Both the position numbers and the translations under genes were made by a program. A DNA stretch of 54,762 bases from Sphingomonadaceae bacterium (GTDB lineage Bacteria > Chloroflexota > UBA6077). How positions within the stretch are numbered: the first letter of the stretch is position 1; every line of letters begins with the position of its first letter. Location of the stretch: assembly GCA_050261575.1 (NCBI GenBank), contig JBLNDL010000063.1, positions 1-54,762 of the forward strand, written 5' to 3'. Below the pieces are notes generated by a model. It saw only the letters and a list, made by a program, of their open reading frames with translations, ran no database searches and had not been told where the DNA came from. Positions 19,989 to 23,017 of this stretch are shown here, in pieces.

Positions 19989-23017
<3,029 letters not shown>

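Follow-up and report, generated by a model that had tools for sequence, protein, structure and literature searches.

The stretch of DNA analysed here, called the window below, is a contig of 54,762 nucleotides (nt) (JBLNDL010000063.1) from a metagenome-assembled genome (MAG) of the Chloroflexota, G000, whose 103 contigs total 3.72 Mb, at a rated completeness of 100% and a contamination of 4.8%. In the middle of this 54.7-kb contig, among ordinary Chloroflexota genes, lies a full-length, divergent operon for 16S and 23S ribosomal RNA (rRNA), whose 23S rRNA has an altered helix 69 (H69), the hairpin that faces helix 44 (h44) of the 16S rRNA across the intersubunit bridge B2a. As judged from comparison of sequences, the H69 variant belongs to a larger set of changes in an additional, paralogous 16S-23S operon, which stands beside the canonical rRNA operons in a class of soil Chloroflexota. 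We call this extra divergent operon x, and its copies are written G045x, G096x, G098x and G100x where single genomes have to be told apart. All the genomes holding it are MAGs with a contamination of 2-8%, and they belong to three families, namely f1, the family of the window (G000, G002, G003 and G004, with G001 as a further member), f8 (G045) and f35 (G096, G098 and G100). The operon is laid out as follows.

18129..18200, plus strand: upstream element of the x operon, with a TTGACA hexamer at 18129-18134 and then a leader of about 45 nt without differences between G000 and G004
18221..19820, plus strand: x-type 16S rRNA gene, full length (Rfam RF00177, 1218.9 bits)
19821..19988, plus strand: 16S-23S spacer, 168 nt, with no transfer RNA (tRNA) genes
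19989..23019, plus strand: x-type 23S rRNA gene (Rfam RF02541, 2185.1 bits, model positions 1-2925 of 2925)
22024..22042, plus strand: H69, with U1911A, A1913C (22031), C1914A and U1915C, and with A1912, A1916, U1917, A1918 and A1919 kept

The canonical full-length 16S rRNA genes of Chloroflexota score 1410-1580 bits and the 23S rRNA genes of the canonical relatives 2394-2628 bits with the same models, versus 1218.9 and 2185.1 for the window. The window 16S rRNA is 67% identical to that of E. coli, 76% to the canonical 16S rRNA of the family (G003) and 89% to the x copy of G004, and the window 23S rRNA is 64% identical to that of E. coli. According to Rfam, there is no 5S rRNA gene anywhere in the 54.7-kb window.

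The H69 of the window reads GGGCGAACACATAACGCTC, while E. coli 1906-1924 and all five canonical 23S rRNAs of the class that were aligned over H69 (G001, G027, G021, G096c and G106) read GGCCGTAACTATAACGGTC. The 23S numbering is taken from the E. coli record (L003), and the register comes from a structure-aware Rfam alignment of window 21880-22260 to the bacterial large-subunit (LSU) model, which assigns the 19 bases to H69 at top posterior probability and with which MAFFT agrees. The canonical 19-mer is present exactly in 66 of 201 sampled Chloroflexota genomes, a sample in which many have no assembled 23S rRNA. Thus, the H69 sequence and the four loop substitutions given in the original prediction, including A1913C at 22031, hold in both alignments, and so does its covariation of the stem, as the pair 1908:1922 is swapped from C-G to G-C and thereby compensated. 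With this one swap, 1906-1910 pair with 1920-1924 in the window, and the nucleotides with strong mutant phenotypes are all present. The pair 1911:1919 has gone from U-A to A.A, non-standard according to Rfam, so the loop-closing pair is lost. In all nine x copies the stem pairs, except for a single C.A mismatch in G100x, and G045x has two further compensated stem pairs. A1912, U1917 and A1919 are unchanged in nine of nine copies, and the variable positions among them are 1911, 1913, 1914, 1915, 1916 and 1918; the decoding-site nucleotide A1913 is C in the window and in five other family-type copies. The E. coli study by Liiv et al. (2005, PMC1190176) reports no clear phenotype for single mutations at 1911, 1913, 1914, 1915 and 1918, a strong inhibition of translation by A1912G, Psi1917C and A1919G, and an impaired 50S or 70S formation with A1916G. 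The loop changes of the window (1911, 1913, 1914 and 1915) therefore fall exactly at positions that are tolerant in E. coli. Two of those mutations, C1914A and Psi1915C, are the same as in x, and 1911 and 1913 were mutated to other bases; however, the E. coli mutants carry single engineered changes, whereas x combines four with the lost 1911:1919 pair and changes in other centres, in a natural gene (PMC1190176). The H69 of x looks like a retained docking hairpin, in which the A-site-facing nucleotides would be free to drift under a kept core constraint. As a separate observation, insertions of about 745 nt (G021 C1, L058) and about 630 nt (G005 C55, L059) occur in canonical 23S rRNA genes at E. 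coli ~1917/1918, within the H69 loop, and ~1931, and no intron family was named for them by Rfam at gathering score.

The 16S rRNA of the operon is altered in its decoding site and in other functional elements, at the following places.

18774..18795, plus strand: 530 loop, with C518U, C525U and U531C; position 530 is still G in the window and A in G004
19662..19675, plus strand: 5' strand of h44 at the decoding site, with C1400A, C1402U, U1406C, A1408G, C1409U, A1410G and C1411U (Rfam, MAFFT)
19767..19780, plus strand: 3' strand of h44, with G1491A, A1492C (19771), A1493G (19772), U1495G and A1500G
19809..19820, plus strand: 3' tail of the 16S rRNA, with CUGCC in place of the anti-Shine-Dalgarno (anti-SD) sequence CCUCC; the tail varies among the x copies

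The lost decoding site, to which the altered H69 had been coupled, is thus real, as A1492C and A1493G stand at 19771-19772. The changes on the two strands of h44 pair with each other (1406-1495 C-G, 1409-1491 U-A, 1410-1490 G-C and 1402-1500 U-G), and through A1408G, U1406C/U1495G, C1409U/G1491A, A1410G/U1490C and C1402U/A1500G the internal loop of h44 becomes a nearly continuous helix; A1410G/U1490C is a change relative to E. coli only, because the canonical 16S rRNAs of the class are already G1410/C1490. The window 16S rRNA fits RF00177, yet it lacks the marks of a working decoder, namely A1492/A1493, an open h44 loop and CCUCC. Among 957 columns invariant in eight canonical 16S sequences, 112 are changed in both family copies, including C518U, C525U, U531C, the 790 loop, G926A, C1054A, 1398-1411 and the 3' tail, and the changes in 16S are densest at 150-250 and 1350-1542 and sparsest at 350-500, 550-650 and 800-900. 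Across the x copies position 1493 is G, A or U, and the 16S tails differ among G000, G004, the metagenome contig M064, G045x and the three f35 copies, the anti-SD being retained in G045x only. No shared replacement anti-SD was found among the x 16S tails, the leaders of messenger RNAs (mRNAs) not being searched. The x 16S also has a lineage-specific insertion of 63 nt at window ~18663-18738.

In the 23S rRNA, the functional centres are changed in the following manner.

21186..21191, plus strand: GTPase-associated centre, with A1095G, A1096C and U1097G; G1068A lies upstream, and the 25 nt around the centre do not differ among the three family copies
22058..22085, plus strand: H70/H71 (region of bridge B3), with changes common to all x copies and a 2-nt insertion
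22369..22375, plus strand: P loop, with G2251U, G2252U and G2253U, the same in six of six family-type copies
22569..22575, plus strand: peptidyl-transferase ring, with G2447A, U2449C, C2452A and A2453G and with A2451 kept; variable among the x copies
22673..22678, plus strand: A loop, with U2554A, U2555C and a 1-nt deletion; G2553 is kept in the alignment used
22704..22723, plus strand: 2584-2602 region, with U2584C, U2585A, U2593A, A2600U and A2602G
22774..22788, plus strand: sarcin-ricin loop, kept, with only U2653A and C2666A

A2059G is present in addition. Likewise, the window 23S rRNA fits RF02541, yet it is without G2251, G2252, U2585, A2602 and the intact A loop that mark a working peptidyl-transferase centre. 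The altered sites are not the same from copy to copy: P-loop 2251/2252 is UU in f1, GA in G045x and AG, GU and GG in the three f35 copies, which are mutually 85-88% identical; the sarcin-ricin GAGA is intact in f1 and f8 and is GGAA or GCAA in f35 (A2660G/C, G2661A); and within f1, 2447, 2449, 2452, 2583-2586, the A loop, G530 and the H69 loop are variable. G045x retains A1492/A1493, the anti-SD, A2451, U2585, A2602 and G2553. When 1290 columns of 23S rRNA that are invariant in six canonical sequences were compared with seven x copies, 373 were changed in at least one copy, 360 differed among the x copies and 26 were changed in all; for 869 invariant columns of 16S rRNA, the respective numbers were 253, 239 and 23. 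Variable columns exceed conserved ones in variability by a factor of 3.1-5.8 in canonical pairs, but of about 1.9 in x. Furthermore, the x 23S has a lineage-specific insertion of 73 nt near model position 283, the tip of helix 38 (H38) in G000 lacks 17 nt relative to G002 and G004, and G045x appears to be without ~95 nt around the L1-stalk region.

The original prediction took the changes in h44 and H69 together as the two sides of a co-adapted B2a bridge, by which the variant subunits might pair preferentially. The joint change itself is borne out, since A1913C and U1915C occur in all four window-type-h44 homologues with H69 on the same contig (G000, G004 and the metagenome contigs M064 and M065), three of which have the exact H69 of the window, and no homologue with a changed h44 has a fully canonical H69. 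The co-adapted bridge as the driver of subunit pairing is not supported. In the wider x family the cross-subunit covariation is loose: 1492/1493 is C/G with 1913 = C in the f1 copies, and beside A1493U (1492/1493 = A/U) position 1913 is C in G100x, G in G096x and still A in G098x, while G045x has A/A and A1913, yet carries U1915C and A1918G. For such a correlation of 1492/1493 with 1913, the copies at hand offer no more than about three independent changes. Because the x copies are one vertically inherited operon lineage, the co-occurrence of the h44 and H69 variants is essentially one event and not repeated covariation. Moreover, B2a is not special, as the 530 loop, C1054, G926, the anti-SD, the P loop, the A loop, 2447-2453, U2585, A2602 and the GTPase-associated centre are also changed. 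The loop changes of H69 look like drift at tolerant positions with the core constraint retained, and not like a bridge that has been refitted to a new partner.

The operon is nevertheless conserved far above neutral expectation. Across genera the x copies are 88-93% identical, versus 38-58% at the four-fold degenerate sites of flanking genes in the same genome pairs (four flanking orthologues served as this neutral yardstick, and a fifth open reading frame, probably in a wrong frame, was dropped). On secondary structures predicted from canonical sequences only, x keeps 90% of 447 pairs in 16S rRNA and 88-89% of about 860 pairs in 23S rRNA; on the same structures, 96-99% are kept by the canonical sequences of the class and 93-94% by E. 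coli. Among the 23S pairs changed on both sides, 29 of 31 still pair between G000 and G004, 29 of 32 between G000 and G002, and 12 of 14 between G002 and G004, and the same is true of seven of the eight such 16S pairs within the family. From f1 to f35, in alignments that are approximate, the divergence of x amounts to only about 1.6-fold (16S) and 1.1-fold (23S) that of the canonical genes. All the x copies are full length with intact 5' and 3' helices. In these respects x does not behave as a pseudogene, its rate not being near-neutral and compensating changes being in excess. In the upstream alignment (window 17901-18240 against the G004 locus), TTGACA and the leader are conserved and the remaining intergenic DNA is unalignable. 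A promoter scan of 17500-23700 gave no sigma-70-like sites, such a scan being uninformative for Chloroflexota promoters, and terminator-like sites in the same interval were not above shuffled sequence. We infer that the fold of the x RNAs, and with it the binding of the common ribosomal proteins, is selected; decoding, CCA binding, peptide release and, in f35, factor activation would in our reading not be what is selected.

A hint only of expression came from soil metatranscriptome assemblies of four runs, in which DNA may be present. Per run, 12,000-16,000 pieces aligned, mostly short contigs of other organisms' rRNA on conserved stretches, where depth is uninformative on x. Contigs with 0 differences from x cover 21915-22191, 22092-22408, 21304-21454, 22147-22297 and 22415-22499 (three runs from three studies). 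One of them (X13 record 24, 277 nt, depth 8.8) covers 21915-22191 including H69, and another (X12 record 16, 317 nt) covers 22092-22408 including the UUU P loop. There is no cover of bin 19661-19820 in X11-X13 and of bins 19821-19980 and 20301-20460 in all four runs, which is not evidence of absence.

Besides the window operon there is no other full rRNA gene in the G000 assembly. At the start of two of its contigs, C74 and C18, stand the 3'-terminal 125 nt of a bacterial LSU rRNA, which is cut by the contig end (81.4 and 81.8 bits). Over their 23S part the two do not differ from one another, and their identity is 84-86% to the end of the canonical 23S in G001 versus 77-78% to the end of the window 23S; contig C74 continues with a 5S rRNA gene, two tRNAs and genes syntenic with the G001 flank at 65-81% amino-acid identity. 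This is the usual picture of repeated canonical operons that are collapsed in a short-read assembly while the unique divergent operon is assembled. Both operon types occur in five of the eight x-holding genomes (G000, G003, G045, G096 and G098). G003 has an x 23S piece, a canonical 16S (1543 bits, with normal decoding site and anti-SD) followed by the start of a canonical 23S, and also a canonical LSU end with 5S; G096 has a complete x operon and a complete canonical operon with 5S and two spacer tRNAs, the two differing by 26% in 16S and 30% in 23S; G098 has an x operon and a canonical H69 on a separate contig; and G045 has an x operon and two contig starts with a different LSU end. The genes for the ribosomal proteins uS12, uL2 and uL11 are each single-copy in G000. 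In three other genomes, G036 (L055), G006 (L056) and G025 (L057), there is no 23S within ~4 kb downstream of the canonical 16S, so that their rRNA genes seem to be unlinked.

The order-level search covered 39 genomes with a 16S match in 23, and the class-wide 16S survey 66 genomes with a match in 23; G037, which is flagged as unpublished, is included in both tallies and no claim depends on it. Within the order, the window-type 16S is limited to G000 and G004 and the window-type 23S is found also in G002 and G003, all of one family, and the flanks of the x operon are syntenic in these four genomes of three genera. Further low-scoring full-length 16S genes (1168-1224 bits) are present in G045 (f8) and in G096, G098 and G100 (f35), each followed by a low-scoring 23S and no 5S. 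The window type is also found on two metagenome contigs of 97 kb and 3.7 kb. The collections were scanned with the exact 19-base signature of the x GTPase centre; since an exact 19-mer retrieves close kin only, these scans say little on the wider spread of x. Two of the three matches in species genomes are true x operons (G002 and G004), and the third, labelled Acidobacteriaceae, is not an x operon and has no rRNA similarity; among metagenome contigs two of six matches are true and the other four are without rRNA similarity. In a 16S tree of 44 rows, the six x genes form one clade (Shimodaira-Hasegawa-like approximate likelihood ratio test, SH-aLRT, 99), which is nested among the canonical 16S of the class, and the branching inside it follows the families. 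We read this distribution as one old duplication inside the class, probably followed by vertical descent and several losses. Aside from these operons, 16S-like fragments that may be remnants lie at G116 C1:234678-234843 and G115 C3:9741-9885 (53 and 49 bits, model ~917-1381 in ~150 nt); these two, a closed genome and a relative, are without x operons.

Considering the conservation, the descent and the altered centres, we think it rather probable that x is an ancient, conserved and probably expressed paralogous operon and that canonical translation by its products is unlikely. The greater part of this confidence goes to a selected particle with a non-translational job, a kind of "pseudo-ribosome" with the H69/h44 bridge as a docking element only; the particle by itself is a tentative proposal, which we hold to be somewhat short of probable. 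According to this proposal, the x-16S and x-23S RNAs would take on an rRNA-like fold, recruit the one set of ribosomal proteins that the cell has, use 5S RNA from elsewhere and form 30S- and 50S-like particles, which may still dock because H69 keeps A1912, U1917 and A1919. In E. coli, mutations of A1492, A1493, G2251, G2252 and U2585 are strongly deleterious or dominant lethal. The x particles would be unable to monitor codon-anticodon pairing, to hold CCA ends or to release peptides canonically, so the assembled particle, and not protein synthesis, would be what is selected. In this picture, the lapse of its A-site and decoding duties would have let the H69 loop change, with only its structural role kept.

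Several facts weigh against this interpretation. Three of the holders, G002, G004 and G100, show x only, and there is no closed genome with both operon types on one chromosome, all x holders being MAGs. The single x clade could be aided by long-branch attraction, as long branches and odd base composition are flagged in the tree. No x operon is present at the syntenic site of G001, and two closed genomes of the class as well as a near-complete one in 6 contigs are also without it; its function is therefore dispensable. In G001, however, the BON-gene neighbourhood is syntenic up to the x insertion point and the next 7.3 kb are without rRNA, but the downstream genes are also non-syntenic, so that loss and rearrangement are indistinguishable there. 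The RNA-library contigs are short, at a depth of 2-9, and such libraries may include DNA. It is pure inference that the particle might, for example, buffer ribosomal proteins or factors, or serve as a decoy under ribosome-directed attack. Finally, the near-canonical rate, the sarcin-ricin loop intact in two families, the H69 core and G045x fit a translation-like cycle.

The last point leads to the alternative that survives best, although we consider it unlikely, namely that x encodes a specialised or orthogonal translating ribosome, whose 30S and 50S subunits are co-adapted across B2a and which serves special mRNAs or conditions such as antibiotics. The h44 and H69 variants found together in all four window-type copies, the strong conservation and probable expression of the operon, the sarcin-ricin loop and H69 core kept in f1, and the retention of nearly all catalytic and decoding nucleotides in G045x are consistent with it, as are many substitutions at what we take to be positions of known resistance mutations (A1408G, U1406, 1409/1491, A2059G, G2447A, C2452, A2453 and A1095). 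However, the new active sites would have to differ from one x copy to another, since the P loop, the A loop, 2447-2453, 2583-2586, 1913, G530 and the 16S tail all vary, and the tails have no common replacement anti-SD. Moreover, the lineages have lost different essentials, f35 even the sarcin-ricin GAGA, and there is no second uS12, uL2 or uL11. The pairing of the P loop with nucleotides C74/C75 of tRNA is established, and a UUU P loop would be unable to pair with them in ordinary tRNAs. Because the H69 changes are at positions silent in E. coli (PMC1190176), no compensating partner is needed for them either.

Quite improbable, in our estimate, is a decaying pseudo-operon, i.e. a duplicated rRNA operon that has lost its function and is eroding without selection. 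Such decay would explain why universal nucleotides are replaced differently in each lineage, why the 5S and the spacer tRNAs are absent, why the operon is lost from the G001 syntenic site and from closed genomes of the class, and why the site-specific pattern of constraint is flattened; it does not agree with the 88-93% identity between genera against 38-58% at four-fold sites, the compensated pairs within the clade (29/31, 29/32 and 12/14), the full length of all copies with their intact 5' and 3' helices, the conserved upstream element, the persistence of the lineage over three families and the identical contigs in RNA libraries.

It is very improbable that x is the sole working rRNA of a fast-evolving lineage and that the canonical pieces are contamination from binned relatives. 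The window operon is indeed the only full one in the assembly and the contamination of the MAG is 4.8%, but contig C74 runs from the canonical 23S end into genes syntenic with G001 at 65-81% amino-acid identity, the two types are paired in five MAGs from different assemblies, and no organism is known in which canonical translation proceeds in the absence of A1492/A1493, G2251/G2252 and an anti-SD. An assembly or binning artefact, in the form of a chimeric or foreign rRNA contig, can practically be dismissed: rRNA regions are notoriously misassembled in metagenomes, but this operon is embedded among ordinary Chloroflexota genes in the interior of a 54.7-kb contig, the same operon with its flanks was assembled independently in G002, G003 and G004 and on the 97-kb and 3.7-kb metagenome contigs, and DNA runs contain 0.66-0.83 of the sampled x-operon words.

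In the neighbourhood of the operon, an RRM_1-domain gene on the plus strand at 23020-23442, with a likely start near 23155, adjoins the x 23S, and a strong GC hairpin lies between them at 23090-23124. An orthologue (53% amino-acid identity) is found 3' of the x 23S in G003 and not in G002, and a paralogue is present at G000 C39:52440-52679; it is conceivable that the x RNAs have the RRM_1 protein as a partner. Further downstream, at a distance of 10 kb from the operon, are two tRNA genes (window 33396-33466 and 33491-33563). An orphan 5S gene is located elsewhere in G000 (C56:51885-52001; L053 1386-1502), in the middle of a contig, with a tRNA before it and no adjacent 23S, and it differs very little from the 5S that follows the canonical 23S end of contig C74. 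This orphan could be a source of 5S RNA for x particles.

Different rRNA operon types within one organism have been described before. In Scytonema hyalinum (type 1 and type 2) and Haloarcula (rrnA and rrnB), as described in PMC5658200 and PMC5368182, a second type accompanies the normal one, retains the secondary structure, recurs in conserved form across strains and deviates in 16S as well as in 23S, all of which is as in x. Their operon types differ by 5-9% in 16S; PMC5658200 gives 7.3-9.0% as the highest 16S divergence within a prokaryote, and PMC2672173 a within-genome 23S diversity of 0.01-4.04% in 184 species. In contrast, the two types of G096 differ by 26% (16S) and 30% (23S), and x replaces universal decoding and catalytic nucleotides; whereas both types in Scytonema and Haloarcula are thought to translate, x is without the universal functional nucleotides. 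The anti-SD core is missing from the 16S of symbionts, hemotropic Mycoplasma and Flavobacteria (Lim et al. 2012, PMC3457768); in those genomes all the 16S copies are without CCUCC and the ribosome works, whereas here it is the extra operon only, and the canonical 16S of G003 keeps CCUCC. Similar to rRNA pseudogenes and truncated genes, x has lost essential nucleotides and is dispensable in some relatives, but unlike them it is full length, compensated, far above neutral conservation and persisting across families. Engineered orthogonal ribosomes have an altered anti-SD, or P-loop and A-loop changes that are matched to tRNA 3' ends. Such ribosomes are mentioned in PMC4394545. As with them, the altered tail of the x 16S would avoid ordinary mRNAs led by a Shine-Dalgarno (SD) sequence, and G2251/G2252 of the P loop are changed; however, orthogonal ribosomes have a matched SD or tRNA partner and intact decoding, while x has no conserved replacement motif and its decoding adenines are gone. 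No rRNA operon of the x kind was described in the full-text literature searched, in which most subscription journals are outside coverage.

The 530-loop stretch is a usual primer site for 16S genes, and there the x 16S has three differences from E. coli (C518U, C525U and U531C). In addition, it is ~25% different from the organism's real 16S, and x is the copy that assembles cleanly in MAGs. Thus, x can mislead the 16S-based placement of these Chloroflexota, and its 16S could distort amplicon surveys of the group. To our knowledge, A1492, A1493, G2251, G2252, U2585 and A2602 are treated as invariant in every ribosome, and rRNA genes in which these nucleotides are replaced, and which are yet full length, stem-compensated and conserved far above neutral, are unexpected. 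If the x particles translate, they would be a natural experiment on how far the decoding and catalytic core can be rewritten, and a ready-made orthogonal scaffold. If they do not translate, they would point to a second, unknown cellular role for ribosome-like particles.

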